DNA from: Candidatus Bruticola sp.
GTDB lineage: Bacteria > Vulcanimicrobiota > Xenobia > Xenobiales > Xenobiaceae
Length of the DNA: 33,808 nucleotides
NCBI GenBank assembly: GCA_051874735.1
Contig: JBJEGD010000035.1
Coordinates: 65,488-99,295 of the forward strand
Direction of reading: 5' to 3'
The first letter of the stretch is position 1, and each line of letters begins with the position of its first letter. This document shows, one piece after another, positions 1 through 19,662 of the stretch. Both the position numbers and the translations under genes were made by a program. The notes beneath the pieces were generated by a model that saw only the letters and a list, made by a program, of their open reading frames with translations, was not told the DNA's origin and searched no databases.

Positions 1-1349
1 CGGAAACGAATGCTTCTTATGTCCACACTTTTGTTCACGGCGATAAAGATACTGCCGAGACTGTGACCGTCAACAATGTAAGCACTTACGCTACCCATGT
101 TGTCGCTTCTTATTACGATAAAGATGGCAAGTTAGTGGCTGCCGGTCAAAACGATCTTTCCTTTGGTACTTCTAATAGCGCTGAAGTGGCTGAACCTGAA
201 GTTGCCGAAGTTAAAGGTGTTGAGTTATTAGCCTCTAATCATGTGGTAGCTCTTAATGGCGAAACTAATTTAGTAGTAGCTGGGACTATCGGTGAAGGCG
301 ACGAGGAAAAAGATCTTAACTTGACAGCTTTTGCTGACATTAAGGGCATCGATGCCGCGACTCTCCAGCCTTATTATGAATCTGAGATGGGCATTACTTA
401 CACTGGCATTAAGTACGGCACTGTCAGTGATGCTTACGCTGAAATTGGCGGCGAGAAGTACGCTCTCGAAAATCCTATTTATGCAACTGATCAGACTGTA
501 GCCGCTTTAGAAGTCGTTCCCGACGGTGATACTCCCTGCTCTATTTACGACAGAAATAAAATTGAGCTTCTGTATGCTCCCGATAAAGACAGTGAAGGCA
601 AAGTTGTCAACGGCTCATTCGGTTTAAATTTTGTTGATTTGTATAAAGTTGAAGACACCGAATTTAAAGAAGTTTCTTTAGTAGCTGCTGTCAATAGTGT
701 TCCTCTTCAAGTACCGGCAGTTTACACTAATGAAGATGGCAAAGGGCCTCAGCCTCAGAATATCGATTTGCTTGCTGAAAACGACAGCAATTTGAAGTTG
801 AACATTATCCCCGGTAATGAAGAGGGCGATGCTTCTCTGTTGCAAATAGACGACTTAGGTGTACTGCAGATCAATGGTCTGAGCAATGATCTGGGCAATA
901 TCGACTCTTACCGCGTTGAAGCTGTCTATGGTGAGGGTGAAGACGCTCCTACCGATTCCTTAGATGTAGAGGCTATCGATGGTCAGCCTTCATTGCAGCT
1001 TTGCGAGAGCACCTCAGAGGGTATTGTTTATACTACTGAGTTAGTTGCTAATAAAGGTGCAGAGTTTAAGGCTAATCTCATGCTTTATGGCCGTTTGGCT
1101 TTTGGTGAATTCTTCCAATCTCAGCCTATTGCCATTAGCGAGAGCATTATCGCGGCCGATGCTTATCCTGCTGCTAAACCTATAGACAGCGAGTATATGA
1201 CCTTCGTTCAGGATGAAGAAGGAGCTAACGGCTACACCTTTAGCTACGATGGTTCCAGTGAAGTTACCGAAGGTTGCACTTTAGACTTAGAAGCTATAGA
1301 TAAAGCGCCTACCTTTAAGCCAACTGAAGTTACTTTTGCTGAATTATAA
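1..1349 (+). CDS. Surface lipoprotein paralog 1 (5'-truncated by window edge)
   Basis: Frame is open from base 3 (ETNASYVHTF...) and is near-identical to 1772 onward inside paralog 2, so the GTG at 63 is not the real start. Acidic, beta-rich composition. Confidence 0.85.
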   Translation, partial: ETNASYVHTFVHGDKDTAETVTVNNVSTYATHVVASYYDKDGKLVAAGQNDLSFGTSNSAEVAEPEVAEVKGVELLASNHVVALNGETNLVVAGTIGEGDEEKDLNLTAFADIKGIDAATLQPYYESEMGITYTGIKYGTVSDAYAEIGGEKYALENPIYATDQTVAALEVVPDGDTPCSIYDRNKIELLYAPDKDSEGKVVNGSFGLNFVDLYKVEDTEFKEVSLVAAVNSVPLQVPAVYTNEDGKGPQPQNIDLLAENDSNLKLNIIPGNEEGDASLLQIDDLGVLQINGLSNDLGNIDSYRVEAVYGEGEDAPTDSLDVEAIDGQPSLQLCESTSEGIVYTTELVANKGAEFKANLMLYGRLAFGEFFQSQPIAISESIIAADAYPAAKPIDSEYMTFVQDEEGANGYTFSYDGSSEVTEGCTLDLEAIDKAPTFKPTEVTFAEL

Positions 1350-1378
1350 CTTAAGTTAGTTGCCATTCGCTAGCTAGC

Positions 1379-1430
1379 GGTCCCCCAGCTGTTTTATGGT
1401 AAAATAAATCAGCTGGGGGGCTTTTTTGTT
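1379..1430 (+). terminator. Intrinsic terminator after paralog 1
   Basis: Stem GTCCCCCAGCTG / CAGCTGGGGGGC followed by TTTTTTGTT. Confidence 0.8.
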
Positions 1431-1515
1431 GTCCACATACTGAGAAGGAATAGACTAAAATTTACTTAAGTAGAGCTTCACTTTATAAGAAAAAAGGAGT
1501 CTGCCGTATTTTCCT

Positions 1516-3132
1516 ATGATTAAAAAGAATACGTTTCGTTTTGTTGCCTTTACGGCTGCTGCTTTGGGAGTAAGCTTATTAGTATCAGGCTGCGGTGACA
1601 GTGGCTCTACTACTCCCAACGATTTAAATGCCAAATACGGCAAAGTAACTTTTAATTACAATGTTTTAGCCGCTTCTGCTGCTAAAGCTACCGATGTGCA
1701 GGCTGAAATTGTCACCGTAAAGTATGCCTTCTACGGTCTTAAAGAGGGTGGCGCCCGTTTCGTAAGCGGTCCGGAAACGAATGCTTCTTATGTCCACACT
1801 TTTGTTCACGGCGATAAAGATACTGCTGAGACTGTGACCGTCAACAATGTAAGCACCTATGCTACTCACGTTGTCGCTTCTTATTACGATAAAGATGGCA
1901 AGTTAGTGGCTGCTGGTCAGAACGATATCTCTTTTGGAACTTCCAACACTGTCGAAGTGACTGAACCTGAAGTTGCTGAAGTTAAAGAAGTTGAGTTATT
2001 AGCCTCTAATCATGTGGTTGCTCTCAACGGTGAAACTAATTTAGTAGTAGCTGGAACTATCGGTGAAGGCGACGAGGAAAAAGATCTTAACTTGACAGCT
2101 TTTGCTGATATTAAGGGCATCGATGCCGAAACTCTCAAACCTTATTATGAATCTGAGATGGGCATTACTTACACTGGCATTAAGTACGGCACTGTCAGTG
2201 ATGCTTACGCTGAAATTGGCGGCGAGAAGTACGCTCTCGAAAATCCTATTTATGCAACTGATCAGACTGTAGCCGCTTTAGAAGTCGTTCCCGACGGTGA
2301 TACTCCCTGCTCTATTTACGACAGAAATAAAATTGAGCTTCTGTATGCTCCCGATAAAGACAGTGAAGGCAAAGTTGTCAACGGCTCATTCGGTTTAAAT
2401 TTTGTTGATTTGTATAAAGTTGAAGACACCGAATTTAAAGAAGTTTCTTTAGTAGCTGCTGTCAATAGTGTTCCTCTTCAAGTACCGGCAGTTTACACTA
2501 ACGAAGATGGCAAAGGGCCTCAGCCTCAGAATATCGATTTGCTTGCTGAAAATGACAGCAATTTGAAGTTGAACATTATCCCCGGAAATGAAGATGGCGA
2601 TGCTTCTCTGTTGCAAATAGACGACTTAGGTGTACTGCAACTCAAGGGTTTGAACTATGAACTTGGTAAGGTCAACTCTTACCGCGTTGAAGCTGTCTAT
2701 GGTGAGGGTGAAGATGCCCCTACCGATTCTTTAGAGGTAGAAGCTGCCGATGGTCAGCCTTCATTGCAGCTTTGCGCAATCACTCCAGAGGGTATTACTT
2801 ATGCTCCTAATATAAATATTCTTGATAACGATAAGGTAACGGTCAATCTCGCACTTTACGGTTGTTTGACTTTTAGTAGATTATTCCAATCTCAGCCTAT
2901 TGCCGTTAGCGAGAGTATTATTGCGGCCGATGCTTATCCTGCGGCTAAACCTATAGACAGCGAGCATATGACCTTCGTTCAGAATGAGAAAGGGGCCAAT
3001 GACTACACATTTGATTACGATGGCTCGGAAGATGTTCACAATAGCACCTTAGATTTAGAGGCTATAGAAAATGCTCCTACCTTTGTACCATCTGAGGTTA
3101 TAGCGGAGGGAATTATTATAGTTGTACCTTAA
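1516..3132 (+). CDS. Surface lipoprotein paralog 2 (538 aa)
   Basis: Signal peptide MIKKNTFRFVAFTAAALGVSLLVSG-C with lipobox; AAGGAG at 1494-1499; shared motif YYDKDGKLVAAG. Confidence 0.85.
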   Translation: MIKKNTFRFVAFTAAALGVSLLVSGCGDSGSTTPNDLNAKYGKVTFNYNVLAASAAKATDVQAEIVTVKYAFYGLKEGGARFVSGPETNASYVHTFVHGDKDTAETVTVNNVSTYATHVVASYYDKDGKLVAAGQNDISFGTSNTVEVTEPEVAEVKEVELLASNHVVALNGETNLVVAGTIGEGDEEKDLNLTAFADIKGIDAETLKPYYESEMGITYTGIKYGTVSDAYAEIGGEKYALENPIYATDQTVAALEVVPDGDTPCSIYDRNKIELLYAPDKDSEGKVVNGSFGLNFVDLYKVEDTEFKEVSLVAAVNSVPLQVPAVYTNEDGKGPQPQNIDLLAENDSNLKLNIIPGNEDGDASLLQIDDLGVLQLKGLNYELGKVNSYRVEAVYGEGEDAPTDSLEVEAADGQPSLQLCAITPEGITYAPNINILDNDKVTVNLALYGCLTFSRLFQSQPIAVSESIIAADAYPAAKPIDSEHMTFVQNEKGANDYTFDYDGSEDVHNSTLDLEAIENAPTFVPSEVIAEGIIIVVP

Positions 3133-3160
3133 TTTAGTTTAGCTATTATTCATTAGTTGA

Positions 3161-3214
3161 GGCTCCTTCGGCTGTTTTATGTCAAAATAAATCAGCCGAG
3201 GAGCTTTTTTTGTT
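3161..3214 (+). terminator. Intrinsic terminator after paralog 2
   Basis: Stem GCTCCTTCGGCTG / CAGCCGAGGAGC plus T7; homologous to 1379..1430. Confidence 0.8.
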
Positions 3215-3304
3215 GCCTGTACGCTGAAAGGAAAATATCCGAAATTTATTTAATTAGCGTAAATCGCGTTATATCAAAAGAAAGGTGGGCTTTTCCGTTT
3301 ATTT

Positions 3305-4924
3305 ATGATTAAAAAGAATACATTCCGTTTTGCTGCTTTTACTGCTGCCGCTTTAGGGCTAAGTTTATTAGTATCCGGCTGCGGTGACGGCGGTTCTGTC
3401 GAGCCTAATCCTTTAGACGGTCTCCCTCGCATCGTAAATTCAGTTACTTTTAATTATAAGCTGTTGGCAGAGACTGTCGCCAATGCCAGACAGGAGATCG
3501 AACCCTCTATAACTTCTGTTAAGTTTTCTTTTGTAGGATTGCGTGACAAAGTCGCTTTTTGCGACATTACAGATAGCTACAAATTGGAGCACGGTTCCGA
3601 AGATACTGATTACGATTTAGTAGTAGAAAACGTTGATCCTAATTCGACAAAAGTTACAGCCGCTTATTTTGATAAAGATGGCAACTTAGTAGCTGTAGGT
3701 GTAAATGAGCTGAATTGGCACGAGCAAAATGCTACTGTAGGTTCTCCAGTCGTAACCAATTTGGGCAACGATTATATTGTTGGACTTTCAACTGACAAAG
3801 ATTTTTTGCCTCTTAATAGTGACGTACAGTTCTCCCTCAATATTCTTCCTGAGGGAGAGGAATTGCCCGTCGATATAACTCCTTTTGCTACTTTCAGCGG
3901 CATAGATGAAAATGTTTTTGCTCCATCTGCTAGTAAACTTCCTGGAGCTTACAGTGTCATAGGGTACGGACATATTGAAAAAGAAGCGATCTCTGCTTCA
4001 GTTGGCTCTATTAAAGCCTCTATACTCGAAGAAATTTATGCAACCGATCAAGTTCCTGCCAAAATTTCTTTTATTAGTTTTAATCCGGAAATTTCTCCTT
4101 TATATGAATCTGGGTCGATGGAAGCTACTAATCAGTACGTTATACTTCAATCTGATGGTGATCAAGATACTTTCGGTAAAGACTATGTTTACATGAGAGA
4201 CAAAGATTATATCAACAGCTATCGAAAATTAGAGGAGAAAGACTTTAACCGCTTTGCAGCTGCGGTTAACGATATGAAGTTTAAAGTTGTAATTGACGCC
4301 TATACTAATATCGATGGAAAAGGGCCTGTTCCAGAAGTTCCCGTTGATATTACGGCAAGTGATAAACTTTCACTGGCAATTACTAGGGTAACGGATCCGG
4401 ATAACCCTGTGGAATATGGTGAGGCTGATATCCACGCCTTCATTGAGGATCAAACTTTAAAAATCCGCAATATGTCTGACGATATAGAAACTTATAATGT
4501 CTGTGCGTCCTATAACTACAACGATGAAAGTGCTTGTGGTACTGACATTCGTTTGTCTGCGTCAAAAGTTAAATCTCGCTTGCGTTTCCAAGACGTCACC
4601 TATTACGGCAATTTCTTGATGTTAGATCTGAAATTCTCTGAAATTATACAGTACAATAGGATTTTAGTTAAAGGTCAAATTTGTGCTTTAGATGGTGCTT
4701 TCTTCAGTGCTCCTATTGATGTTCCTGAAAGTTTAATAGGTGCTGGAGAATATCCCGATGTAGCCCCTATCTCCGATCTTAATCTTAACTATTACAAACA
4801 ATTAGAACAGGGAGCTAACGGTTACGGCTTTCAGTTTAATGAATCTCCTGTGGCTCCTGTTGCGCTCGATTTAGCAAAGCCTACAACTCCAGCTTTTGAT
4901 CCGGTTGTTTTGAGCCGTAAGTAA
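3305..4924 (+). CDS. Surface lipoprotein paralog 3 (539 aa)
   Basis: Signal/lipobox nearly identical to paralog 2 (LLVSG-C); shared motifs YFDKDGNLVAVG, IYATDQ, YTNIDGKGP, GANGYGF; mature region strongly diverged. Confidence 0.85.
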   Translation: MIKKNTFRFAAFTAAALGLSLLVSGCGDGGSVEPNPLDGLPRIVNSVTFNYKLLAETVANARQEIEPSITSVKFSFVGLRDKVAFCDITDSYKLEHGSEDTDYDLVVENVDPNSTKVTAAYFDKDGNLVAVGVNELNWHEQNATVGSPVVTNLGNDYIVGLSTDKDFLPLNSDVQFSLNILPEGEELPVDITPFATFSGIDENVFAPSASKLPGAYSVIGYGHIEKEAISASVGSIKASILEEIYATDQVPAKISFISFNPEISPLYESGSMEATNQYVILQSDGDQDTFGKDYVYMRDKDYINSYRKLEEKDFNRFAAAVNDMKFKVVIDAYTNIDGKGPVPEVPVDITASDKLSLAITRVTDPDNPVEYGEADIHAFIEDQTLKIRNMSDDIETYNVCASYNYNDESACGTDIRLSASKVKSRLRFQDVTYYGNFLMLDLKFSEIIQYNRILVKGQICALDGAFFSAPIDVPESLIGAGEYPDVAPISDLNLNYYKQLEQGANGYGFQFNESPVAPVALDLAKPTTPAFDPVVLSRK

Positions 4925-5384
4925 ACTATGTAAAAATAGTGTGTCAGGCTGCCGAGCTGCCGCTAGTGTAGGTCGCTTGACAGGTTATTTCCGAGCAGTT
5001 GCTCTCTCTCGAAATAGTGAATTCTTCTTGGGAAGGGCAGCTGCTTTCTTATGTCCTATTTTTAAAGTTTGGGCTTAAGTTGGAGTAGTGGTAAATTAAC
5101 TGTTAAAGGTGCCATAAATGGTAAGGTATGACTGCTTACTGATAGTGAGTCTGTGTAAGGCTTATTTTCTGCCCAGGCAGGAGGGGAGGCAGGTTTCGGG
5201 AAAGTAAGCTGAATAACGTATATAATGCTATGTGCTGCAGAATCAGCTGTCTGCAATGAGCTAGTCAGGCAGCTCCAGCCTTTCGCAGTTTCTAGATTAT
5301 AAAAGCGGAGAGTATTTGAGTATATTTGCGCGTTTTTATCAGCGCAGCTGGACTCTTTATATATTTGAGAGGAATAAAAAGAAC

Positions 5385-7022
5385 ATGGCTCAATTCGCCC
5401 ATAAGAATCTATACGGATTCGCTGCTTTTGCAGCTGCTAGTTTGGCTCTTTGCTTTACTGCTGCCGGATGCAGCGATGATACTTCTAATCCCGATCCTTT
5501 TGCGCTGAACCGAGGCACAGTTACTTACAATTATACTAAGGCTGTGGCCAAGGCTGCTGAACTTCCTGCCGGTGCTGTAAAAGCCTACTATACTTTTAGT
5601 AACGACGACGCTTTTGTTTATACGGCTGAAGTTTCTATTAGTGACGCTGATGAGGAAGAAACTGCTGTTGGTGAACCGGTAGAACGTACTACAACCATTG
5701 AGCAGGTGCCCATTGAAGCCACCAAAGTTTCGGTGATGTATTTCAATAATGAGGGAAATCCTGTCGGTATTGGTGTTGACGAATTGAACTGGACCAAGGA
5801 CGCCAATGGAGCTTCATCGGCTGTGGTTGAAGAGCCCGATTACATGAACAGCGAGCTCATAGCTGCCGGTATTAAAGCTGAGACCATGAATTTTGATATC
5901 ATGACCTCCGCTCCATGCGTCAACAAAGGCGGTCACATCTGGGTAAAGCCTATTCTTTCCTACACCAATGGCTTGGGACGCCATGTGGCTTTTGATCTCA
6001 GTGCTTTCGCTTCCTACGATTTGCATAAGTCTCACGCCGATCAGCCTACATATTTGGAAGAGGACAGCTATAAAGGCTATGTTCTTAATGTCGCTCCCCC
6101 TGCTATTGGCGAGGCAATAGTCGATAATGGCAATGCCGAAGGTGAAGGTGAAGAAGCCGCTAAAGTTACAGCTAAGTCTTCTTCTGAATCGTCGACCCCT
6201 GGTTACTACTATGCTGTTGAGTACGGTCAGCAGACGGTTACTGTTTCTTTAGAGGATTTAGCTGCTTTAGGGATTGCATCTAAATCTACAGTTGTCTATG
6301 TGAGCGATGCTACATTAAAAGAAGTCAAAATTTCCGGCGATAAGGATGTGTATGTAGTCGTTCCCGAGTACGATTTCGGCCTGGAATCGGTGCTGGTTGA
6401 GGGTGTGGGGTTGTCGGATGTTCCTTTCTATACAACTTCATTTGAAGCTGTAGGCAGTTATGTCGGCACTAAAGGTCCCAGCTTTACAGCTGCTGCTAGC
6501 AAGTATGTGCGGTGGAATTTGTCTTCAGATGCAGATGTTACTTACACTCAAGATGCCGAAGGGCGTTTATTAGTAACTTCTCAGGCTACTTCTTTAAAAG
6601 ACATTGTTGTTTCTGCTGAATTCGGTAGCAATAAAGATCAAGTTACGCTGCACTCTTTACCCGCTGTTTCCAAAATCAAAATTGATATGGATGAGAGCAT
6701 ACCGGCCGGTAGTGGAACTAGCGGTACGATAGATAGTTACTTCTTAGTTTCTACCGATGCAGGTGAAGTGGCTACTTCGAGCAGTAGTCTTCCCGCAGAG
6801 GGATATCGTAGAATCAAACTGCTGACTCCGGTAAGCACCATGGCTTTGAGTTCACCTACTTTTATTAAAAATGAAACTGGAGACGGACTTGTTCTGATTC
6901 TTGATAAAGAAGAAGAAGGTACTTCCGTCAGTCTGTCTGCTGTTTACAGCGATAGAACGAAAAATTTTGTTGTCAGCACCGATCCTTTCACTGTACAGGT
7001 TACTGCTGGCGAAGGTGCATAA
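5385..7022 (+). CDS. Surface lipoprotein paralog 4 (545 aa; ATG 5385 preferred to TTG 5316)
   Basis: GAGAGGA upstream of ATG 5385, which gives a clean signal peptide MAQFAHKNLYGFAAFAAASLALCFTAAG-C; motifs GTVTYNY, YFNNEGNPVGIG, KGP. Confidence 0.8.
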   Translation: MAQFAHKNLYGFAAFAAASLALCFTAAGCSDDTSNPDPFALNRGTVTYNYTKAVAKAAELPAGAVKAYYTFSNDDAFVYTAEVSISDADEEETAVGEPVERTTTIEQVPIEATKVSVMYFNNEGNPVGIGVDELNWTKDANGASSAVVEEPDYMNSELIAAGIKAETMNFDIMTSAPCVNKGGHIWVKPILSYTNGLGRHVAFDLSAFASYDLHKSHADQPTYLEEDSYKGYVLNVAPPAIGEAIVDNGNAEGEGEEAAKVTAKSSSESSTPGYYYAVEYGQQTVTVSLEDLAALGIASKSTVVYVSDATLKEVKISGDKDVYVVVPEYDFGLESVLVEGVGLSDVPFYTTSFEAVGSYVGTKGPSFTAAASKYVRWNLSSDADVTYTQDAEGRLLVTSQATSLKDIVVSAEFGSNKDQVTLHSLPAVSKIKIDMDESIPAGSGTSGTIDSYFLVSTDAGEVATSSSSLPAEGYRRIKLLTPVSTMALSSPTFIKNETGDGLVLILDKEEEGTSVSLSAVYSDRTKNFVVSTDPFTVQVTAGEGA

Positions 7023-7050
7023 TAGCTTGTAGTTAATATGCTACGCGATT

Positions 7051-7097
7051 GGGTAGTCGCTTCCGCTGTGAGCTTGCGGCTGCCCTTTCTTTGTTTT
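7051..7097 (+). terminator. Intrinsic terminator after paralog 4
   Basis: GGGTAGTCGC / GCGGCTGCCC stem (with G-U pairs) followed by TTTCTTTGTTTT. Confidence 0.7.
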
Positions 7098-7192
7098 AAT
7101 TGTCTATTTATTCAAGCGGCACAGAGGAGAGCTGCTTTTGATGGCAGGTTATTAGTTGTTTCGCTTCCTTATTTTTATAGAAAGGATTTTTT

Positions 7193-8557
7193 ATGCAGTA
7201 TTTTCTGAAACTTAAGAAAACGTTCAGAATTTTTATCGCATTTCTGTGTGTGCTCAGCTTGTGCGCTGTGTTAAGCGGCTGCTCTGATGATGATGAATTG
7301 GGCAATCCTTCGCGCGCTTCCATTCTGGTAACTCATGAAATTTCTTCAGGCAAAATAGCTGCTTCTGCTCGTGCTTTAGGTCCTGATATTCATAGTGTCG
7401 TTTACTACTGCTACAACAGTCAGGGAGTCCGTACTTTCGGTCCAGCTCAATTGGTGAAGGCGCATCAAGTTCTGCTGCAGGCTGTTCCCGTCGAATCTGT
7501 CTCTATAGGTATGACTTATTACGATAGTGATGGTAAGGCGGTGGCTTATTACAGCCAGCCGGTAAGTTTAAAAATTGGCGAAGTTTATGAAGTAACTAAT
7601 CCCAACTGGAACTATCTCGATGAACTGGATAACTTAGTAGGCTTAAAAATCGCTCAGAATGACATGCGCATTCATACCGGCGATGATGCTGTTTTCTACG
7701 CTTTAGCCTTGTTTAAAGATTCTGAAAGTTCTTTAGTCTATCCTCAGTTGTTTACTAGCATGTGCTCTTGGAAGAGCAGTAATACTGAAGTAGCTTCCTT
7801 GACTAAAAGAGGGGATGACGGCAACGAGGTCACTTTAGGCGACGGTAAATTTTACACCTTAACTGCCGGTACCTCCGAAATTAGTGCTTCTTTTAACGGA
7901 TTGTCAGATACCGTCGCGTTAGAAGTGACGGACGCCTCTGTGGAATCAGTCACTTTTAATGTTGAGGAAATTACTTTACCTTTGGGGCTTCCTTCTTACA
8001 AATGCCCGGCTATAGCCCATTGGTCCGATGGTGTTGATAGCGACGTCAGCTTTCAAAGCAACTGGACTTCTTCTAATACTGAGCGTGTTTTAGCCAGTTA
8101 CGGTTCTATTTTCCCCAAAGCTTGTCAAGGAGAAGAAGAAACTGCCGCTTCCGTGATTGCTTCATTTACTTCAGAGAATAAGGCTCATCAGGCTACCTGC
8201 AAAGTAACCGTAGTTGACGGATCTTTCAAAGGATTGTCTCTCAATATTAGGCCGTATCCTTTATATGTTGGAGAAACCAGCAATATTGAAGTAGGTGCTA
8301 TTTTTGCAGTAAACGGTAGTACGGAAACTTACGAGCTGGGTAATTACAGTGAGTATATCATTACCTCTTCTAAACCTGAAGTAGCCTCTTTAAATGTTTG
8401 GGGCACTGAATTGACTGGCCGTTCTGTTGGCAGCACTGATTTGAAGGTCATTGTCAAGAATGACTACATTGGAAAAGAAGAAAAATCTGTAACTGTCGAT
8501 GTAACAGAGCCGGTCTCGTCTGATGAGGGTGCCGATCTCGCGGCTGATGGTGAGTAA
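7193..8557 (+). CDS. Surface lipoprotein paralog 5 with Ig-like (Big_2-like) repeats
   Basis: Lipobox VLSG-C; N-domain motif YYDSDGKAVA; three Big_2-type segments WKSSNTEVASL, WTSSNTERV, ITSSKPEVASL. Confidence 0.8.
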   Translation: MQYFLKLKKTFRIFIAFLCVLSLCAVLSGCSDDDELGNPSRASILVTHEISSGKIAASARALGPDIHSVVYYCYNSQGVRTFGPAQLVKAHQVLLQAVPVESVSIGMTYYDSDGKAVAYYSQPVSLKIGEVYEVTNPNWNYLDELDNLVGLKIAQNDMRIHTGDDAVFYALALFKDSESSLVYPQLFTSMCSWKSSNTEVASLTKRGDDGNEVTLGDGKFYTLTAGTSEISASFNGLSDTVALEVTDASVESVTFNVEEITLPLGLPSYKCPAIAHWSDGVDSDVSFQSNWTSSNTERVLASYGSIFPKACQGEEETAASVIASFTSENKAHQATCKVTVVDGSFKGLSLNIRPYPLYVGETSNIEVGAIFAVNGSTETYELGNYSEYIITSSKPEVASLNVWGTELTGRSVGSTDLKVIVKNDYIGKEEKSVTVDVTEPVSSDEGADLAADGE

Positions 8558-8578: not shown

Positions 8579-8630
8579 AATAAATACGGTCTCCCGCTCT
8601 GTACAGAGCTGGAGACCGTATTTATTTTTG
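8579..8630. terminator. Bidirectional terminator between lipoprotein array and radical SAM gene
   Basis: AATAAATACGGTCTCC-c-GCTCTG-ta-CAGAGC-t-GGAGACCGTATTTATT inverted repeat with A/T-rich flanks between convergent genes. Confidence 0.85.
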
Positions 8631-8662: not shown

Positions 8663-9769
8663 TTACTTGTCTTCAGCTTTCCAGCGTTCTGCACTTCCTG
8701 GTATTTCTGCACTGAGCCTTTCTAAAATGGCTTTCATAGCTTCACACATAATAGTTTGCTGTTCAGGGTTGCCGCTCAGCTGTCGCTCCCAAGCACAGCC
8801 GCCTCGGCAGAAATGGAACCATTTACAGCTGCGGCAGTTGACGGGAATTTGAGCCCAACGCCTGAAGAATTCTATAGCTTTAGGCGAAGTCATCAGTTCT
8901 TTTAAAGTATTTTGATGAATATTGCCCAAGCAGAATTCTTTCATGCCAGAAAATTCATCACAGGGATAGACGTCGCCATTGTGGGCAAAACCGACAAAAT
9001 GGGAGCATTTTCCCTGCAATTTGCAGTAGTGAGGAGTATGACCGGCTAGTTTACGAGAAATTTCAGAAAGAATGCGCACTCTGAAATTAGGGTTATTTAA
9101 AGCGAGCCAGCGATCTAGCACGCGCATAATAAATTGTTTATACTCTTGGCCGCTGATTTCTACTTCAAAATGACCTTGATGGTAACGGGTAGAGGGAACG
9201 AAATCCATCTCTTTGAAGCCCTGTGCTTCAAACCAATTAACCATTTTTTCTGGGTAGGGCAAACCCGCCGGAGTGAGTACTGCTGAAACTCGCGGATTTA
9301 TACCGACAGCCCGCAGACAGGATATACCTCTCCAAACTTCTTCAAAGCTGCCTTGCCCGGCTCGGGTTCCGGCCCGATATACTCTTTGGTTGTTGTGAAT
9401 TTCGGGCGGTCCGTCTAAACTTACTGTCACCGCAAAATTGCGGTCGGACAATAGCTGCGCCCATTCTTCATTTATAAGGGTTCCATTAGTCTGCAGACCG
9501 TGGTAAACGGAGCGTCCTGCAAAATAGCGGTCGACTAACTCCAGGGCTTCTGTAAAGCGCTTTACGCCGTATAAAGTAGGCTCGCCGCCGAACCAGAGAA
9601 GATGGATAGACCCTTGAGTGTTTTGGGCTACAGCTTCGAGTGATTTTTCTAAGGTGGCTCGGTCCATAAAATAACCAGAGCCCAGCTTCCCGTCTTGACA
9701 GCAGTACTTACAGGCGAGATTGCAGGACTCGGTTAACTTAAAGACTGGCCTTAATTGGCCGGAAATCAC
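8663..9769 (-). CDS. Radical SAM/SPASM domain enzyme (anSME-like, probable peptide maturase)
   Basis: CNLACKYC (CxxxCxxC), GGEP, QTNG, SLDG; SPASM C-x5-C-x14-C(D)...CxxC-x5-C-x3-C-x16-C; no N-terminal RRE; GTG start overlaps the stop of the upstream peptide (GTGA). Confidence 0.9.
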   Translation of the reverse strand: MISGQLRPVFKLTESCNLACKYCCQDGKLGSGYFMDRATLEKSLEAVAQNTQGSIHLLWFGGEPTLYGVKRFTEALELVDRYFAGRSVYHGLQTNGTLINEEWAQLLSDRNFAVTVSLDGPPEIHNNQRVYRAGTRAGQGSFEEVWRGISCLRAVGINPRVSAVLTPAGLPYPEKMVNWFEAQGFKEMDFVPSTRYHQGHFEVEISGQEYKQFIMRVLDRWLALNNPNFRVRILSEISRKLAGHTPHYCKLQGKCSHFVGFAHNGDVYPCDEFSGMKEFCLGNIHQNTLKELMTSPKAIEFFRRWAQIPVNCRSCKWFHFCRGGCAWERQLSGNPEQQTIMCEAMKAILERLSAEIPGSAERWKAEDK

Positions 9770-9858
9770 GCTTTAACCCAGCAAACGCAGTCTTTTTCTT
9801 CGGGATCAGCATTGATAGCTGCGGCAATTACAGCATTAACTTCTTTGGTCTCTGCCAT
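9766..9858 (-). CDS. Putative RiPP precursor peptide, 30 aa: MAETKEVNAVIAAAINADPEEKDCVCWVKA
   Basis: AAGGAG 8 nt before ATG 9858; TGA overlaps the radical SAM GTG; acidic/Ala leader and C-terminal CVCWVK. An in-frame GTG at 9987 (AGGAG 11 nt upstream) would give a 73-aa form. Confidence 0.7.
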   Translation of the reverse strand: MAETKEVNAVIAAAINADPEEKDCVCWVKA

Positions 9859-10058
9859 GTTGATATCTCCTTGTATTGTTAGGCGGCGGGGATCTGCTAA
9901 TAAAGCAGTCTCGTCTTGTATTGTATCTGTTCTGGAGAACGCTCTGCACAAGTGACGCCAGAAAACAGGTCTCCCGCCTTCGCCCACTAATAAAAGTGCT
10001 CCTGCCTTAAATTTTTTGGCAGTCGCCTATCGCTATTAAAGTTCACCAAGCAATAGGT

Positions 10059-11402
10059 CTATTTGTCTTTAGAGGGTTGCTGCTTGGAACTTTCAGATGA
10101 ATCTGAAGTAGGAGAGGGGGCGCCCTGTTGGGTTATTGTCTTGTTTTTCTGATTTGTATGGCCATAATTGCGCAGCTTGTTAACGAGCCGTTTACTACCT
10201 TGAACTTTGCCATGTACTTTGTTGACAATTTGCTTAACAGATTCGGTCGCTGACACGGTGCCGTTTTCTTCAGGAGGGTAGGGCGTATCCGGCTGACGCA
10301 TATCTTCCTCAGTAAGGGGGCCAAAAGCGGGGTTCTTTTCCACATAGAATTCTATAATAACTCGGGCAATAGCTGCTAGTGGGATCGCTACCAACATGCC
10401 CATAATACCTCCTAATTCAGCTCCGGCAATTAAGGCTACCATAACGGTGAGGGGAGGCAGTTTTACAGAACGTCCGATAACAGCAGGAACAATAATATGC
10501 CCTTCCAGCCAATGAACGGCCTGAAGCACAATTATCGTAAAGATCGCAAATAAAGGACCTTTATTCAGAAGAGCGATGATAAAAGCTGGAATGTAGCTTA
10601 TCGCTACACCTACGTAAGGAATAATGTCGATAATACCGGAAAACACACCGATTAAGACAGCGTAGTCTATACCCATAATCCACAAGGATAGACCGACAAA
10701 GAAGCCGATGGTAATGCAGACAATCAGTTGACCGCAGATAAATTTTCCTAAAACATAGTCTATGCGTCTAAGTAAATCGACAGCTCCTGGACGCCATTTC
10801 TTGGGCAAACAGCCGACAAAACTTTCTTTGTACACGCCAGCGTCTATTAAAATATAGAAGACCAGCAGAGGCACCAAAATAGCTCCGCCCATGATGCTAG
10901 CCATGCTGCGCATACCGGACAGGAAGCCGGGCATAGAACTTTTGACCAGGCTAGGGCTGTTGTTTTGCATAAAGTGAACGAGATGGCTGGGGCTGAGCTT
11001 TTCGGGGTTGACTATCGGTTTAAGAGAAGATGGCAGCCAGCTCTGTATATAGAGACACCATTTTGAGGTCATTTGGCTCAAGTTGGCCGACATAGTGCTC
11101 ATATTGCTAATTAAGCGATGAAATTCCAGCTTGACTATAGGCAGCAAATAGGCTACGAAAAATGATATGAGGGCTATTAAAACTATATAAACGATAGCTA
11201 TAGCCGCCGTCTTCGGTATGCCTTTCTGGTGTAGCCAGCTTACTCCAGGTGAGATTAAGTAAGTTACCAAAATAGAGACCACCAAAATATTGATGATCAT
11301 ATGGATTTGGCCTAAGAACCAGCACAATAAGCCAACTAAAATTAAAAGGCCCAGAATGTAAATTACGATCTGGTATTTATTTCTATTATTATCAGGTTCC
11401 AT
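10059..11402 (-). CDS. AI-2E (PerM-like) family transporter
   Basis: Multiple TM helices; family motifs IPYVG, QAVHWLEGHIIVPAVIG, LPPL, GGIMGMLVAIPLAA; hydrophilic C-terminal tail. Confidence 0.88.
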   Translation of the reverse strand: MEPDNNRNKYQIVIYILGLLILVGLLCWFLGQIHMIINILVVSILVTYLISPGVSWLHQKGIPKTAAIAIVYIVLIALISFFVAYLLPIVKLEFHRLISNMSTMSANLSQMTSKWCLYIQSWLPSSLKPIVNPEKLSPSHLVHFMQNNSPSLVKSSMPGFLSGMRSMASIMGGAILVPLLVFYILIDAGVYKESFVGCLPKKWRPGAVDLLRRIDYVLGKFICGQLIVCITIGFFVGLSLWIMGIDYAVLIGVFSGIIDIIPYVGVAISYIPAFIIALLNKGPLFAIFTIIVLQAVHWLEGHIIVPAVIGRSVKLPPLTVMVALIAGAELGGIMGMLVAIPLAAIARVIIEFYVEKNPAFGPLTEEDMRQPDTPYPPEENGTVSATESVKQIVNKVHGKVQGSKRLVNKLRNYGHTNQKNKTITQQGAPSPTSDSSESSKQQPSKDK

Positions 11403-13062: not shown

Positions 13063-13803
13063 TTGCCGTTTGTTCAGCCTGTAATTGCTTTTGAAGATAG
13101 CGCCTTGGTTGTGGTTGTCAAGCCGACAGGTCTGCCTGCTCAGCCGGATCCCAGCCGGGCGTTTTCTCTTTTAGATTGGGCCCAACAGTATTGGAAGCAA
13201 GCTTGTGTGATCAATCGTCTCGATCGTCCCGCTGGAGGGCTTATGCTGCTAGCCAAAACGCCAGCTGCCGCGGCGCAGGTGAATAAGTTGCTTCAGACTG
13301 GGCAGATCGAAAAAACTTACCTAGTTTTGGCCGAAAATGGCAGCCAACGGTTAAAAACTTCTGCCTTTTTGGAAAATTATCTACTTAAGTACGGATGCAC
13401 CAACCTCTCAAAAGTAGTCGAAGCCGGTACTGCAGGGGCTAAAGTCGCTCGGCTGCACTATAAAATTTTAGCGGTGGGCAAAACACGTACCCTGCTAGAG
13501 ATAAGGTTGGAAACGGGGCGCCATCATCAGATTCGCGCTCAGTTTTCCCATTTAGGATGTCCGGTGGCCGGCGATGTTAAATATAGAGCCAGACGTGCTC
13601 TGCGTCAGGGTGGTATAGCACTTTGGTCTTATAAACTTAGTTTTTTCTGGAAGGGAAGAGAGCGTAAGTTCATTTGTTATCCTTCAGGACCAGCCTGGCG
13701 ACCGTTTCTAGATATGATTGGGATTAGCTCTGCCCAAGCCTGTATACAAAAACTGAGCGCAAACGTTGAGGCGCCGATGGGGACGGCGGAGGAGCGTAAG
13801 TGA
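13063..13803 (+). CDS. RluA-family pseudouridine synthase
   Basis: KPTGL, NRLDRPAGG (catalytic Asp), KTYL, TGRHHQIRAQ, GDVKY. Confidence 0.9.
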   Translation: MPFVQPVIAFEDSALVVVVKPTGLPAQPDPSRAFSLLDWAQQYWKQACVINRLDRPAGGLMLLAKTPAAAAQVNKLLQTGQIEKTYLVLAENGSQRLKTSAFLENYLLKYGCTNLSKVVEAGTAGAKVARLHYKILAVGKTRTLLEIRLETGRHHQIRAQFSHLGCPVAGDVKYRARRALRQGGIALWSYKLSFFWKGRERKFICYPSGPAWRPFLDMIGISSAQACIQKLSANVEAPMGTAEERK

Positions 13804-14567
13804 GTCCTTATTCAGAAGTTACGCTAGGGCTTTCCTTCATTAGAGCATTCGAATATTCTGATTGGGGAAAAATCGTCTTAAGACGCACTAGCAAAGCGAA
13901 TGCTTATAATCAGCAGATGCTCGAAGAATTTGAGCGGGTGCTGCAGATGTGGCACCGTCAGAAAATGAAGGCTCTTTTGATAGAGTCTGAGTCGCCTCGT
14001 TTTTTTTGCGCTGGAGCTGACAAAAATGAGCTGCAGACCAGGTCGGGAGAAGACGCTTTTGAGTTGTACGTCCGTCAGGTATGGGCTGAACTATATAATT
14101 GGCCCGGAGTAACTGTGGCTTTAATTTGTGGAGCTGCACGAGGGGGAGGGGTAGAAATGGCTCTAGCTTGCGATTTGCGTATCGTTTCTGCTGAGGCGAG
14201 TTTGTCATTTCCTGAATTGTCCTTAGGCCTTATGCCGGCTGCAGGCGGTATCGGTCGTTTAGTGCAGCTAGTCGGTCTAAGTACGGCTAAAGATATGGTG
14301 CTGACTGGCCGCTTGCTCAGCGGGCAATCGGCAAAAAACTGCGGCCTAGCTCAGTACTTTGCTGCTAACAACCAGGAAGCAGCAAATTTGGCTGAAACGA
14401 TTGTTCAGCGAGTTGCGGCTCTCGATTATTGCGCTTTGCGCTTGGCTAAGATGGCCTGCAATGCAGCTGTGGGCAGCGGAGGTGACTCTGATACTCAAGC
14501 TGCTTTAGAAAGTGCTTCTCAAGCTTTTTTATATGAGAGACAGGCTCAAAAGTTAGGAAAACGGTAA
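13800..14567 (+). CDS. Enoyl-CoA hydratase/crotonase (possible DpgB/DpgD-type partner)
   Basis: FCAGAD, ARGGGVEMALACDLRI, FPELSLGLMPAAGG; GTGA overlap with the upstream gene. Confidence 0.9.
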   Translation: MSPYSEVTLGLSFIRAFEYSDWGKIVLRRTSKANAYNQQMLEEFERVLQMWHRQKMKALLIESESPRFFCAGADKNELQTRSGEDAFELYVRQVWAELYNWPGVTVALICGAARGGGVEMALACDLRIVSAEASLSFPELSLGLMPAAGGIGRLVQLVGLSTAKDMVLTGRLLSGQSAKNCGLAQYFAANNQEAANLAETIVQRVAALDYCALRLAKMACNAAVGSGGDSDTQAALESASQAFLYERQAQKLGKR

Positions 14568-14569
14568 AA

Positions 14570-15649
14570 ATGGATAACCCAAGAATAGCTTCTATCGGTA
14601 CGGCTGTGCCGCCAACTTCTTATACCCAAGCAGAATTAGCCCAATACTTTGGCGTCAATAATCGCAAAATTCAAGCACTTTTCTCTAATAGCCATATTGA
14701 GAAGCGCCATTTAACTTTGCCTGTTTTAGAAGAACTTATTCGGAGTAAGAGTAACGCTCTGCCCGTACAAAGTGAAGATCCCGATATTTTAGCTGCCAGG
14801 CATCGTCAGGGAGTGCTAAATTTAGGCTCAGAAGCTCTGCGTCAGGCTTTGCATCAGGCTGGTCTCGCTCCGGATAAGTTAGATTATATAGCTTGTGTCA
14901 CTTCTACTGGCTTTCTTTGTCCCGGAGCCAGTGCTCTTTTAACTAAGGAGCTTGGACTAGCGGAAGATATATTCCGCCTCGATATTGTGGGTATGGGATG
15001 TAATGCCGCTATGAATGCTTTACAGCCTTTGACCAATTTTCTGCGTGTTTACCCTGACAAAACGGCGGCTTTAGTCTGTATCGAAAATTGTTCGGCAGCT
15101 TATGTCGTCGATGAAAAGATGGTGACGGCTGTAGTTAACTCCCTATTCGGCGATGCTTGTGTCGCTTTAATTCTTACGGGCAGCCGTTTTAAAGAGGCCC
15201 CAGTCAATCCTAATTTGCCAGAGGTGCTCGATTTTGAAAGTCAGATAGTTACTGAAGCTCAGCATACTATGCGTTTCGAACACCAGCAGGGACGTCTATC
15301 TTTTTTCCTTGATAAGGACATTCCTTATTTCTTAGGGCAAAATGCTCATAAACCAGTGCGGCGCCTATGGGAACGTCATAATCTTAAAAAGCGCGATATC
15401 TCATGGTGGCTGGTTCATTCTGGCGGCAAAAAAGTTATCGACAGCATAAAAATGAATTTGGGGCTGTCTGATTACGATTTGCGCCATACGATTAGTATTT
15501 TAGCTGAGTACGGCAACATATCATCCTGTTCGGTGCTTTGGGCCTTAAAGCGTTTGAGCGATGAAGCGATAGCTCAGCCCGGAGATCTAGCTACTATTAT
15601 CACTATGGGGCCTGGGGCTTCAATTGAAACAGCGCTGTTGCGTTGGTAG
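14570..15649 (+). CDS. dpgA: Type III polyketide synthase, DpgA (3,5-dihydroxyphenylacetyl-CoA synthase)-like
   Basis: Cys-His-Asn triad in GMGC, HSGG, GNISS; segments CVTSTGF, DIVGMGCNA, CSAAY, AVVNSLFGD, HSGGKKVID, DLRHT, TMGPG.SIETAL..W resemble actinobacterial DpgA as recalled. Confidence 0.8.
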   Translation: MDNPRIASIGTAVPPTSYTQAELAQYFGVNNRKIQALFSNSHIEKRHLTLPVLEELIRSKSNALPVQSEDPDILAARHRQGVLNLGSEALRQALHQAGLAPDKLDYIACVTSTGFLCPGASALLTKELGLAEDIFRLDIVGMGCNAAMNALQPLTNFLRVYPDKTAALVCIENCSAAYVVDEKMVTAVVNSLFGDACVALILTGSRFKEAPVNPNLPEVLDFESQIVTEAQHTMRFEHQQGRLSFFLDKDIPYFLGQNAHKPVRRLWERHNLKKRDISWWLVHSGGKKVIDSIKMNLGLSDYDLRHTISILAEYGNISSCSVLWALKRLSDEAIAQPGDLATIITMGPGASIETALLRW

Positions 15650-17809: not shown

Positions 17810-17882
17810 GAGCGAGTATTTTCGTCTTGGGGGCAACTTCTTAGATATTGATACCAATTCCGTATTATGTATAAAGAGCGTT

Positions 17883-17921
17883 AAAAAAGCAGCCGCAATT
17901 TTTTTAATTCGGCTGCTTTTT
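17883..17921. terminator. Bidirectional terminator downstream of amidohydrolase
   Basis: AAAAAAGCAGCCG...CGGCTGCTTTTT. Confidence 0.8.
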
Positions 17922-17954
17922 ATGTTCTTTAAGTAGATTAAAGATTATATTTAA

Positions 17955-19397: not shown

Positions 19398-19662
19398 AAG
19401 GGAAATTTTCTAATTAGGGGGAAAAGTTCCTTTAAGGCTTGTTATGTATTTAAATGTATAACGCAATATACATATATGATTTAAAAATAAAATACTACAT
19501 ATTTGGTATAAGGTAGTTGTAAAGGACAATAATTTTTTCATTGTTATGGCATATGACATGTTTGTTAGTGCATAAACTATGTCTATATTTGTGCTTAGAA
19601 GGGGATAACGCTGTTTAAAAGCGAATTTTAGAGGGAAATTAGTTGTTAGGAAGTTTGTTATA

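Follow-up and report, generated by a model that had tools for sequence, protein, structure and literature searches.

The question raised by this locus of Candidatus Bruticola sp. is whether a 30-residue peptide, encoded by a small ORF that overlaps a radical SAM/SPASM gene, is the substrate of the enzyme and, if so, which of its residues would be modified. The locus lies in a 33,808-nt stretch of DNA, hereafter the window, for which a sequence-only reading had proposed such a pairing. The two genes form a unit on the minus strand (Table 1). As that reading had described, an AAGGAG motif (9872–9867) is followed by an 8-nt spacer and the ATG of the peptide gene (9858–9856), the ORF is translated as MAETKEVNAVIAAAINADPEEKDCVCWVKA, and its TGA (9768–9766) overlaps the GTG of the enzyme gene (9769–9767). 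The translation also bears out the claim that both Cys residues and the sole aromatic residue lie within the last seven residues. The terminator proposed to follow the enzyme gene was recovered as a hairpin that 0 of 200 shuffled sequences matched in folding, and that probably serves as a two-way terminator; a simple promoter/terminator scan missed it, and likewise found no promoter-like site. The 5′ leader and peptide region gave no Rfam match at E values up to 1. The consensus fold of the leader (−12.4 kcal/mol) has a positive, that is, unfavourable, covariation term and no convincing covarying structure, so that no structure is claimed for it.

Table 1. Features of the two-gene unit and its flanks, in window coordinates.
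Feature	Position	Strand	Basis
Conserved 5′ leader, with genus-conserved blocks GCGAAGGCGG ... CCCCGCCGCC ... AAGGAG	9859..9990	-	genus alignment
Shine-Dalgarno sequence AAGGAG	9867..9872	-	read directly; kept in genus alignment
Putative precursor peptide gene, 30 aa + TGA	9766..9858	-	ORF read; conserved 5′ of 20/25 enzyme homologues
Putative leader recognition motif, residues 7–15, VNAVIAAAI (family consensus V-N-P-V-L-A)	9814..9840	-	alignment and complex model
Predicted core, residues 23–30, DCVCWVKA	9769..9792	-	W27 and K29 invariant among 29 distinct tails
W27 codon	9778..9780	-	family-invariant
K29 codon	9772..9774	-	family-invariant
RRE-less radical SAM/SPASM enzyme, 368 aa, GTG start	8663..9769	-	ORF, Pfam, NCBIfam, alignment, fold
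CxxxCxxC radical-SAM cluster motif, CNLACKYC (C16, C20, C23)	9701..9724	-	invariant; aligned to anSMEcpe motif
SPASM region, eight invariant Cys (C249, C255, C270, C312, C315, C321, C325, C342)	8744..9025	-	invariant columns; anSMEcpe alignment
Long G+C-rich hairpin between convergent genes, then U-rich tract	8579..8626		−34.1 kcal/mol, z = −8.06

Conservation marks the small ORF, at the sequence level, as more than a chance ORF. Among 25 homologues of the enzyme from related genomes (at least 37% identity; locus L026 was completed separately for this count), the peptide lies directly 5′ of the enzyme in 20, the remaining five comprising two contig-end cases and three second copies whose genomes carry a peptide-linked copy as well. 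On metagenome contigs, it was present at 10 of the 13 loci with upstream sequence, the others being two paralogue-type or contig-end cases and one non-member at 30% identity. Alignments of related loci show the peptide to be conserved 5′ of the enzyme across genera, and comparisons with two relatives at about 70–73% enzyme identity gave 8–12 synonymous versus 2–4 non-synonymous codon changes, a pattern by which the peptide is judged to be under purifying selection. A peptide profile has exactly one match among the genome's 69,049 stop-to-stop ORFs of at least 20 aa, and an ending of the form [CST]W.K[AG] is found in only three of them. Within the genus, 2–3 of 30 peptide codons changed, compared with about 136 of 350 enzyme codons, with synonymous sites conserved too; the peptide is identical in seven species, the enzyme having meanwhile diverged to about 87%. 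In a collection of 5.8 billion proteins, the search for the peptide, run with a natural 43-aa family member as the first row, yielded 21 clusters and that for the enzyme about 43; clusters sequence-identical to the window's peptide cover 107 contigs. In this collection, no functional name is attached to these clusters beyond "radical SAM protein" or the misleading "anaerobic sulfatase maturase."

The family peptides are 30–44 aa long, and their conservation is concentrated in two blocks, namely a leader motif and the C-terminal tail. Trp at position −4, Lys at −2, and a final Ala or Gly are present in all 29 distinct tails, an invariance that for Trp and Lys partly reflects the origin of 17 of these tails from a profile already containing both residues; in the bias-free, context-derived set (12 aligned sequences plus the peptides of loci L027 and L097), Trp and Lys are invariant too. 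Asp is found at −8 in 27 of the tails. Cys, Ser, or Thr occupies −7 in 27 tails and −5 in 27, usually with the same residue at both positions, the exceptions being Pro (P0150) and Ala (P0151) at −5 and Arg (P0137) and Glu (L055) at −7. Position −3, the X of W-x-K, is variable (Val in 23, Phe in 5, and Ala in 1). Thus, the proposed check for a conserved peptide 5′ of the homologues came out positive, but the conserved end is W-x-K-[A/G] and not the Cys-centred CxCW core that had been suggested. Of the three chemistries considered in the sequence-only reading, the W-V-K cyclophane fits the sole invariant residues, Trp and Lys. The variation at the Cys positions speaks against a thioether of the sacti- or ranthipeptide type and weakens Cys oxidation; thioether (sactionine) chemistry on the two Cys residues was rejected, since most lineages have Ser or Thr in place of Cys.

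By its family scores, the enzyme belongs to the anSME/DynA neighbourhood. Pfam assigns it Radical_SAM and SPASM domains only, and its cluster motif begins at residue 16, which leaves no room for an N-terminal RRE; no PqqD-family (RRE) match was found in the genome. The enzyme is RRE-less, as had been claimed, and the previously noted spacing is read as C249-x5-C255-x14-C270-D271. D271 and E272 are invariant in the family, with D271 aligned to the Asp of the P-C-D of anSMEcpe. The best NCBIfam family is TIGR03942 (anSME), at 242.8 bits against a cut-off of 349.45, that is, 107 below; five other family members score 210–245 bits on this model, and two true anSMEs score 399.5 and 430.3. DynA is second (215.9 bits, cut-off 450), and the best families after anSME are RRE-less cyclophane formers. 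Further scores, with cut-offs, are 111.7 (650) for DarE, 82.4 (450) for XyeB, 131.0 (310) for GrrM/OscB, 95.9 (370) for FxsB, 126.5 (445) for YhhB, 149.1 (425) for AmcB, 134.3 (340) for PapB, and 76.7 (425) for the SCIFF maturase, with DarW at 151.8 bits. No curated NCBIfam family covers the enzyme, every score being below its cut-off, in keeping with the earlier remark that the CxCW core was not recognised from a described class. Judged from these scores, the pair adds a new family to a kind of system already known. A score gap sets the family apart, with database matches of at least 275 bits followed by matches of at most 217, and genome matches of 304–654 bits followed by matches of at most 227.

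The best PDB sequence match is likewise anSMEcpe (233 bits), followed at a distance by SuiB (38 bits) and PqqE (32 bits). Foldseek gave TM scores of 0.80 for anSMEcpe, 0.77–0.78 for ChlB (solved with its precursor), 0.66–0.68 for CteB, and 0.61–0.63 for SuiB; with anSMEcpe and ChlB nearly equal, the fold comparison cannot separate a cyclophane from an oxidation. Differences from anSMEcpe were observed near the active site. D189, invariant in the family, and F60 each align with Gln in anSMEcpe, and a five-residue insertion after the cluster motif of anSMEcpe is absent from the family; this insertion holds the partner Tyr of the active-site Asp, which we take to be Tyr24 of anSMEcpe. Positions 1, 5, and 6 of a six-residue "catalytic site proximity" profile (PMC10288494) could be assigned to C/Y24, D271, and E272.

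A model of the peptide–enzyme complex scored 0.76, compared with 0.01 for the best of three controls (0.00–0.01 for unrelated 30-mers). In calibration, 58 of 80 solved complexes and 2 of 110 mismatched pairs attained the mark used for such models; the alignments and riding ligands of the calibration differ from those of the present model, and part of the pass may reflect likeness, since solved anSME–peptide and ChlB–ChlA complexes exist. The runs share at least 80% of their contacts, and the pLDDT of the partner is at least 63. In the model, leader residues 7–15 make the lowest-error contacts, with enzyme residues 221–244 and 352–357, including the family-invariant W221, L222, R232, L234, and R239. 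Core residues 21–29 contact 54–58, 87–93, 111–115, 160–162, 189, 247–249, and 271–272 in the barrel and SPASM domain, D189 thus being among the residues that touch the core; distances to SAM are not part of the model output.

It is very probable that the small ORF and the enzyme constitute an enzyme–substrate RiPP pair, and the earlier proposal that the peptide, now seen as a conserved partner, is the substrate of the RRE-less anSME-like radical SAM/SPASM enzyme holds at that strength. For the whole statement, namely that the RiPP module produces a three-residue cyclophane, W-x-K, of the kind found in triceptides and darobactin, the probability is put at about 0.5. We infer, rather than observe, the attacked atom, the product, the removal of the leader, and the biological role. 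The overlap between the stop and start codons would couple translation of the precursor with that of the enzyme, the conserved leader (V-N-P/A-V-L/I-A) would be bound on the helical region between the radical-SAM barrel and the SPASM domain, and the C-terminal core would then be threaded into the barrel. A 5′-deoxyadenosyl radical would take the C-beta hydrogen from the invariant Lys (−2), the Lys radical would add to the indole ring of Trp (−4), likewise invariant, and an auxiliary cluster would accept the electron. The outcome would be a single W-x-K cyclophane (−2 Da), separated from the free C-terminus by one residue. The alternating small residues (C/S/T at −7 and −5, V/F/A at −3, and A/G at −1) would point to the opposite side of an extended strand and represent a steric or hydrogen-bonding requirement, not reaction sites. 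The aromatic-X-X3 pattern defines triceptides, HTK is a proven cyclophane site, and an active-site Asp of HtkB selects Lys at X3 (PMC11499958); by analogy, D189 may be the equivalent of this Asp. YSK and FTK are also proven cyclophane sites (PMC12912966), and W-S-K forms the C–C ring of darobactin (PMC9055067).

Two readings deny the peptide its role as a substrate. One, in which the ORF has no bearing on an enzyme that is simply an anaerobic sulfatase maturase, is highly improbable, although some database records, for example P0025, carry that name. The ORFs of the window include no sulfatase, as had been noted from the letters, and PF00884 has 0 matches in the whole 2.47-Mb genome (92% complete). 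The co-occurrence with sulfatases that the sequence-only reading had named as speaking against itself is not seen in 8 of the 10 genomes of the genus: only two have a PF00884 match, and all ten have the enzyme. In addition, the score lies under the TIGR03942 cut-off, and the peptide is conserved with the enzyme; annotation pipelines will nevertheless keep naming some members sulfatase maturases in sulfatase-free genomes. In the other reading, also improbable if less so, the small upstream ORF is regulatory: it would encode an arrest or coupling peptide governing translation of the enzyme, which would act on something else. Such an ORF would account for the overlapping stop and start codons, the fixed distance of the conserved residues from the stop codon, the conservation within the genus even at synonymous sites, and the conserved blocks in the 5′ leader. 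However, the changes across genera are mostly synonymous, a second conserved block 15–23 residues before the stop is docked on family-invariant enzyme residues in the model, and no alternative substrate is conserved near the pair. The overlap itself is not conserved, the peptide stop lying about 110 nt before the conserved enzyme start in one genus-level group (loci L041–L043).

With the peptide taken as the substrate, the chemistry has to be weighed. Counting against a cyclophane are the highest family score and the nearest solved structure, each of which belongs to anSME and not to a cyclophane synthase; the thiol-acting Asp of anSME, invariant here as D271; the interchange of Cys, Ser, and Thr at −5 and −7, exactly as anSME tolerates; the scores on curated cyclophane-maturase models, far below their cut-offs; and the lack of a conserved protease or exporter beside the pair, when every triceptide characterised is cleaved ahead of its first ring (PMC12912966). 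The same family score, structural match, aligned Asp, and C/S/T interchange favour a retained anSME chemistry, by which C-beta hydrogen abstraction at Cys, Ser, or Thr in position −5 and/or −7 would give formylglycine or a beta-keto residue; this, the main rival to the cyclophane, is rather unlikely. The invariant Lys would then be an anchor, like the Arg of the sulfatase C-x-P-x-R motif, and the carbonyl may react on, for example with the Lys amine. The Asp of anSME is described as crucial to deprotonation of the substrate thiol, and the Arg of sulfatases as an anchor in the pocket (PMC13638132). DarE turns a Ser placed at X3 into formylglycine, so that in this group of enzymes the substrate determines the outcome (PMC10705402). 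Peptide-free second copies of the enzyme, which occur in larger genomes and one of which adjoins an FGE-sulfatase-domain gene, also fit an oxidation. Against it, neither −5 nor −7 is invariant (see the exceptions above), the C/S-x-P/A-x-R motif is absent and the basic residue stands at +3, not +4, the partner Tyr of the anSME Asp (Tyr24, as we assume) falls by alignment in the insertion that is absent here, the TIGR03942 score is 107 bits under the cut-off when true anSMEs reach 400–430, and the absolute invariance of Trp is left without explanation; we know of no natural anSME substrate in which Thr is the residue modified. Some other radical chemistry on Trp and Lys is doubtful, be it a Lys–Trp link through other carbons (as in streptide and WGK), an ether or C–N link, Trp beta-oxidation, or epimerisation. 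The evidence of linkage, conservation, and docking applies to it equally. The known streptide and WGK enzymes have an N-terminal RRE-type domain and are distant from the clade of the present family, and SuiB is only a weak match by sequence and fold. The neighbourhood enzymes make C–C, C–O, and C–N links in a substrate-dependent manner (PMC11499958; PMC10705402), and lytreptides carry Lys–Trp links of another topology (PMC9055067), but in the papers cited, an aromatic-to-C-beta link is the rule for RRE-less enzymes acting on aromatic-X-Lys.

The W-x-K cyclophane module, if such it is, is confined to the window's own class of uncultured bacteria, Xenobia (Eremiobacterota). Enzyme identity tracks taxonomic rank: it is 71–95% among members of the genus and 58–73% at family level, falling to about 47% for the order and about 43% for the class. 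The module is present in one copy per genome. The pair is kept in reduced genomes of 2.2–2.9 Mb, and several relatives in the genus are linked by their record titles to animal-gut or rumen samples; class-wide retention that includes such small gut-associated genomes hints at a physiological rather than an antibiotic role. On the grounds of the single copy per genome, the identity following rank, the 107 contigs with the peptide, its identity in seven species, the lack of an exporter, protease, or immunity gene, and the retention in reduced genomes, the module might make a lineage-wide small molecule, such as a cofactor or an intracellular or quorum signal, from the C-terminal Trp-x-Lys instead of an antibiotic, a speculative and on balance unlikely reading. 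If true, it would represent the logic of PQQ and mycofactocin carried out with an RRE-less anSME-like enzyme. In sequencing runs, matches reached only small shares (0.04–0.07), and none of the runs contained the window's own sequence. In two RNA libraries (four runs examined), contigs of relatives that differ by 40 of 367 and 6 of 149 letters cover the peptide gene and 5′ leader, one of them additionally spanning 277 nt of the enzyme gene; these are contigs, for which DNA carry-over is possible, and are not taken to prove transcription or the existence of one joint transcript. No literature combining the lineage (Eremiobacterota, WPS-2, Xenobia, Bruticola, or UBP9) with triceptides, cyclophanes, or daropeptides was found, and one ocean-microbiome paper is listed for both Eremiobacterota and RiPP (PMC9259500). 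Consisting of two genes and a precursor of 30 residues with a single ring motif, this would be the smallest version of such a system, which makes it an easy target for co-expression. Placed between anSME and the maturases that form cyclophanes, the family offers a useful test case from nature for what determines oxidation versus cross-linking.

In comparison with known systems, the enzyme has the length and architecture of anSME (TIGR03942; anSMEcpe, PDB 4K36–4K39), with no RRE, a CxxxCxxC motif, and eight SPASM Cys residues. These motifs align with those of anSMEcpe, and the three [4Fe-4S] sites of anSME are thus represented. Its predicted substrate, in contrast, is a 30–44-aa peptide without C/S-x-P-x-R in a genome without a sulfatase, and the post-motif insertion of anSMEcpe is missing and its two Gln residues are replaced, as described above. 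The triceptide systems (XyeB/XncB, GrrM/OscB, FxsB, YhhB, AmcB, HtkB, and ChlB) likewise pair an RRE-less radical SAM/SPASM enzyme with a short precursor, and their aromatic-X-X3 pattern is found here as W-x-K in all 29 tails, X3 being Lys, as it is in HTK, YSK, and FTK. Published cyclophane-synthase networks comprise 5,369 enzymes and about 3,900 pathways (PMC11499958). The enzyme belongs to no curated 3-CyFE family and its chemistry is predicted; there is a single motif one residue from the C-terminus and no conserved protease, exporter, or tailoring gene, and the pair is confined to one class, largely following its taxonomy. Relative to sacti- and ranthipeptides, there is no conserved donor Cys and no RRE, and the PapB and SCIFF scores fall below the cut-offs.

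Daropeptides are close in another respect. The DarE and dynobactin maturases are anSME-like by sequence (PMC10288494), and the second ring of darobactin is Trp-x-Lys, the first ring of dynobactin Trp-x-Asn. Removal of the DarA leader by unknown host proteases is documented (PMC9055067), so that a dedicated protease would not be required. The N-terminal extension of about 60 residues that DarE needs for binding (PMC10705402) is absent here, the cluster motif starting at residue 16; the single core aromatic residue gives no aromatic-X-aromatic ether motif, no DarBCD-type transporter is present, and the C-terminal S-F of BamA-targeting peptides (10.1101/2024.12.16.628070) is lacking. From PQQ and mycofactocin biosynthesis, the pair differs in that a PqqD-type RRE partner works there and has no counterpart in this genome, PqqE is a weak match, and no further pathway genes are linked to the pair. 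PqqA/PqqE and MftA/MftC each combine a very short, highly conserved precursor, modified at or near its C-terminal end, with a radical SAM/SPASM enzyme, inherited with the lineage and not in a patchy manner. The pair described here resembles them in having a short conserved peptide whose predicted modified residues are C-terminal and which is inherited with its lineage.

The peptide and enzyme genes were found to overlap by their stop and start codons (table below), and the sequence statements of the sequence-only reading, including the AAGGAG motif, the ATG at 9858, and the TGA/GTG overlap, all proved correct. A hairpin downstream of the enzyme gene lies between convergent genes and was calculated at −34.1 kcal/mol (z = −8.06). 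Only Radical_SAM and SPASM domains were detected in the enzyme with Pfam, and because its CxxxCxxC motif begins at residue 16, it has no N-terminal peptide-binding domain. Furthermore, no PqqD/RRE family match was obtained anywhere in the genome (2.47 Mb, 42 contigs, 92% complete).

Features of the peptide–enzyme module and its surroundings, in window coordinates unless another contig or locus is named
Feature	Position	Strand	Remarks
Shine–Dalgarno sequence	9872-9867	minus	AAGGAG, 8 nt before the peptide ATG
Peptide ORF	9766-9858	minus	MAETKEVNAVIAAAINADPEEKDCVCWVKA; ATG at 9858; TGA overlaps the enzyme GTG
Enzyme ORF	8663-9769	minus	368 aa; GTG start overlaps the peptide TGA
5′ leader blocks	within 9859-9990	minus	GCGAAGGCGG ... 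CCCCGCCGCC, invariant in the genus alignment
AI-2E family transporter gene	10059-11402	minus	PF01594, 206 bits; directly upstream of the peptide gene
Five consecutive ORFs	63-8557	plus	428-568 aa; no Pfam match
Enoyl-CoA hydratase gene, then type III polyketide synthase-like gene	13800-15649	plus	
Two adjacent radical-SAM genes (L002/L003)	17837-20419, contig C32 of the same genome		open frames of ~500 aa
FGE-sulfatase (SUMF1-like) domain gene	2068-2805, locus L053		PF03781, 166.9 bits
Second enzyme copy	2887-4074, locus L053		directly follows the FGE-sulfatase-domain gene
Second core-like string	~2830-2900, locus L055 (same as L026, L095)		D-C-L-T-W-V-K-D..., in a frame just upstream of the precursor

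Conservation of the small ORF was surveyed by searching 41 related genomes with the enzyme and translating the DNA upstream of each match. A homologous small ORF lies directly upstream of 20 of the 25 enzyme homologues (identity of at least 37%); two of the other five are cut by contig ends, and the remaining three are additional enzyme copies whose genomes hold a peptide-linked copy as well. In metagenome contigs, the peptide is upstream in 10 of the 13 loci having upstream sequence, and named genome contigs show the same linkage as the related genomes. The peptide profile matched one of 69,049 ORFs in the window's genome. In a large protein collection, the peptides form 21 clusters, all of them lacking a functional name, and when 1.84 billion representatives were scanned in full with HMMER, 17 matches were obtained, 14 being peptides of 30–73 aa; the remaining three, all long proteins, were taken as spurious, low-complexity matches.

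Alignment of the peptides showed two conserved blocks, namely a leader V-N-P/A-V-L/I-A followed by a hydrophobic residue, and the final eight residues. Counted from the C-terminus, W(−4), K(−2), and A/G(−1) each occur in 29 of 29 distinct tails, with 17 of these retrieved by a profile containing W and K and hence biased toward their invariance; in the context-only tails, which are free of this bias (12 aligned sequences and the peptides of loci L027 and L097), W and K are invariant too. D(−8) is found in 27/29 tails; V, F, or L occurs at −6, and V, F, or A at −3. At each of the positions occupied by Cys in the window's peptide (−7 and −5), 27/29 tails have C, S, or T, mostly the same residue at both (CVC, SVS, TFT); single sequences instead have R or E (−7) or P or A (−5). 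The proposed CxCW core is therefore one local variant of [C/S/T]-x-[C/S/T]-W-x-K-[A/G]-end, in which only W-x-K and the small terminal residue are invariant. At L055, the most distant peptide-linked locus, a second core-like string with no recognisable start or leader could be what is left of a precursor duplication.

The enzyme was best matched in NCBIfam by the anSME model TIGR03942 (242.8 bits; cut-off, 349.45), followed by the dynobactin maturase (215.9 bits; cut-off, 450), DarW (151.8), AmcB (149.1), PapB (134.3), GrrM/OscB (131.0), and YhhB (126.5) models, all of these matches being under their cut-offs. Five other family members gave a similar pattern, and two genuine anSMEs scored 400–430 bits on TIGR03942. 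The family comprises ~43 clusters in the protein collection down to 275 bits, below which the next scores are at most 217, where named anSMEs begin. In a sample of 301 genomes of the phylum, two score groups were likewise seen—members at 304–654 bits and all else at or below 227—with members in four families of the window's class (f1, 15/18; f2, 4/5; f3, 1/16; f4, 3/3) and none in the other families sampled. Among solved structures, anSMEcpe is the nearest in sequence (233 bits) and has in common with the enzyme every cluster cysteine and the P-C-D Asp. This Asp (D271), whose match to anSME the sequence-only reading had noted, is invariant across the family. The AlphaFold model (pLDDT 81.4) resembles both anSMEcpe (TM 0.80) and ChlB, a triceptide synthase solved with its precursor (TM 0.77–0.78). 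Larger genomes of a sister family carry a second enzyme copy, ~45% identical and with no upstream peptide (L053, L054, L056, and L029–L031).

The peptide–enzyme complex, predicted from both alignments with three clusters and SAM, scored 0.76 against 0.01 for the best control; the same mark was attained by 58 of the 80 solved complexes and by 2 of the 110 mismatched pairs in a calibration from which this prediction departs in its own alignments and riding ligands. At least 80% of contacts agreed between runs, and partner pLDDT was at least 63. Solved anSME–peptide and ChlB–ChlA complexes exist, so likeness to these may have added to the result. The lowest-error contacts join leader residues 10–15 to enzyme residues 221–244 and 352–356, including the family-invariant W221, L222, R232, L234, and R239. 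Core residues 21–29 contact the barrel-strand ends (54–58, 87–93, 111–115, 160–162, and 189) and SPASM residues 247–249 and 271–272. The model output holds no distances to SAM and is therefore silent on which residue is attacked.

The defining feature of triceptides is an aromatic-X-X3 motif in which the ring is cross-linked to the C-beta of X3; Lys is common at X3, as in HTK, YSK, and FTK (PMC11499958; excerpts of PMC12912966). In HtkB, an active-site Asp selects Lys at X3 (PMC11499958), and the second ring of darobactin is Trp-x-Lys (excerpts of PMC9055067). In the peptide core, Trp and Lys, two residues apart (i and i+2), provide the only invariant side chains, and X2 varies as in triceptides. 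Since the C/S/T positions alternate with W and K, they would face the opposite side in an extended strand. Moreover, the predicted complex places D189, invariant in the family and Gln in anSMEcpe, against the core. On these grounds, together with the variation of the C/S/T positions, a single W-x-K cyclophane is the favored product, at a probability of roughly one half.

A serious, if unlikely, rival is anSME-type oxidation of the C/S/T residues: D271 is retained, anSME tolerates just such an interchange of C, S, and T, and a paralogue without the peptide adjoins an FGE-sulfatase-domain gene in one case, but the C/S/T positions are not invariant. DarE converts Ser placed at X3 to formylglycine, and the product thus depends on the substrate (excerpts of PMC10705402). 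Other radical chemistry on the invariant Trp and Lys is likewise doubtful. That the enzyme is a plain sulfatase maturase is scarcely credible, given that the window's genome has no PF00884 match and that, within the genus, the enzyme is retained in all 10 genomes, 8 of which have no match to this sulfatase family. It is also highly improbable that the upstream ORF is purely regulatory; in two relatives with enzymes ~70–73% identical to the window's, the peptide shows 8–12 synonymous versus 2–4 non-synonymous codon changes.

The neighbors of the pair vary by lineage (AI-2E transporter, C-N hydrolase, Rex-like regulator, asparaginase, exonuclease VII, MFS transporter, and porin), and the conserved unit therefore consists of the peptide and enzyme genes only. 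The AI-2E gene is upstream of the pair in 8 of 10 genomes of the genus, the window's included, but not in other genera; its product is a possible exporter, though one that does not travel with the module. Otherwise, the window contains ordinary housekeeping genes (DnaK, pseudouridine synthase, lipoyl synthase, OPT transporter, and M24 peptidase) and several uncharacterised lipoprotein-like ORFs. Of the five ORFs at one end, the last two begin like lipoproteins (...GCSDD) and resemble each other only weakly (E = 0.001 over the N-terminal 150 residues). The enoyl-CoA hydratase and type III polyketide synthase-like genes are a small biosynthetic pair unrelated to the module. Elsewhere in the genome, the L002/L003 radical-SAM genes, 27–30% identical to the enzyme, may represent a second peptide-modifying locus.

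Enzyme identity falls with rank (genus, 71–95%; family, 58–73%; order, ~47%; class, ~43%) and the module is present in one copy per genome; this minimal module appears to be inherited vertically. Across seven species of the genus, the peptide's amino acids are identical, whereas the enzyme has diverged to ~87%. The peptide's DNA is nearly identical too, with 2–3 synonymous changes in its 30 codons as opposed to ~136 across 350 enzyme codons, so that its synonymous sites are conserved well in excess of those of the enzyme. RNA-level constraint on the peptide ORF and 5′ leader is possible; no Rfam family matched this region, and no covarying fold emerged in the leader.

No curated NCBIfam or Pfam family covers the peptide or the enzyme, and no paper linking the lineage to such peptides was found in the literature searched. 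The published cyclophane-synthase networks are large, and the clade may already be present in them, unnamed. The type of system, in which an RRE-less anSME-like maturase is paired with an aromatic-X-Lys precursor, is already known. Being very small, the module is attractive as a test of what decides whether oxidation or cross-linking occurs, and a possibly physiological role adds to its appeal. Although production of a cofactor or signal would seem rather unlikely, this reading is kept because the conservation pattern is closer to that of PqqA or MftA than to that of a typical antibiotic precursor.
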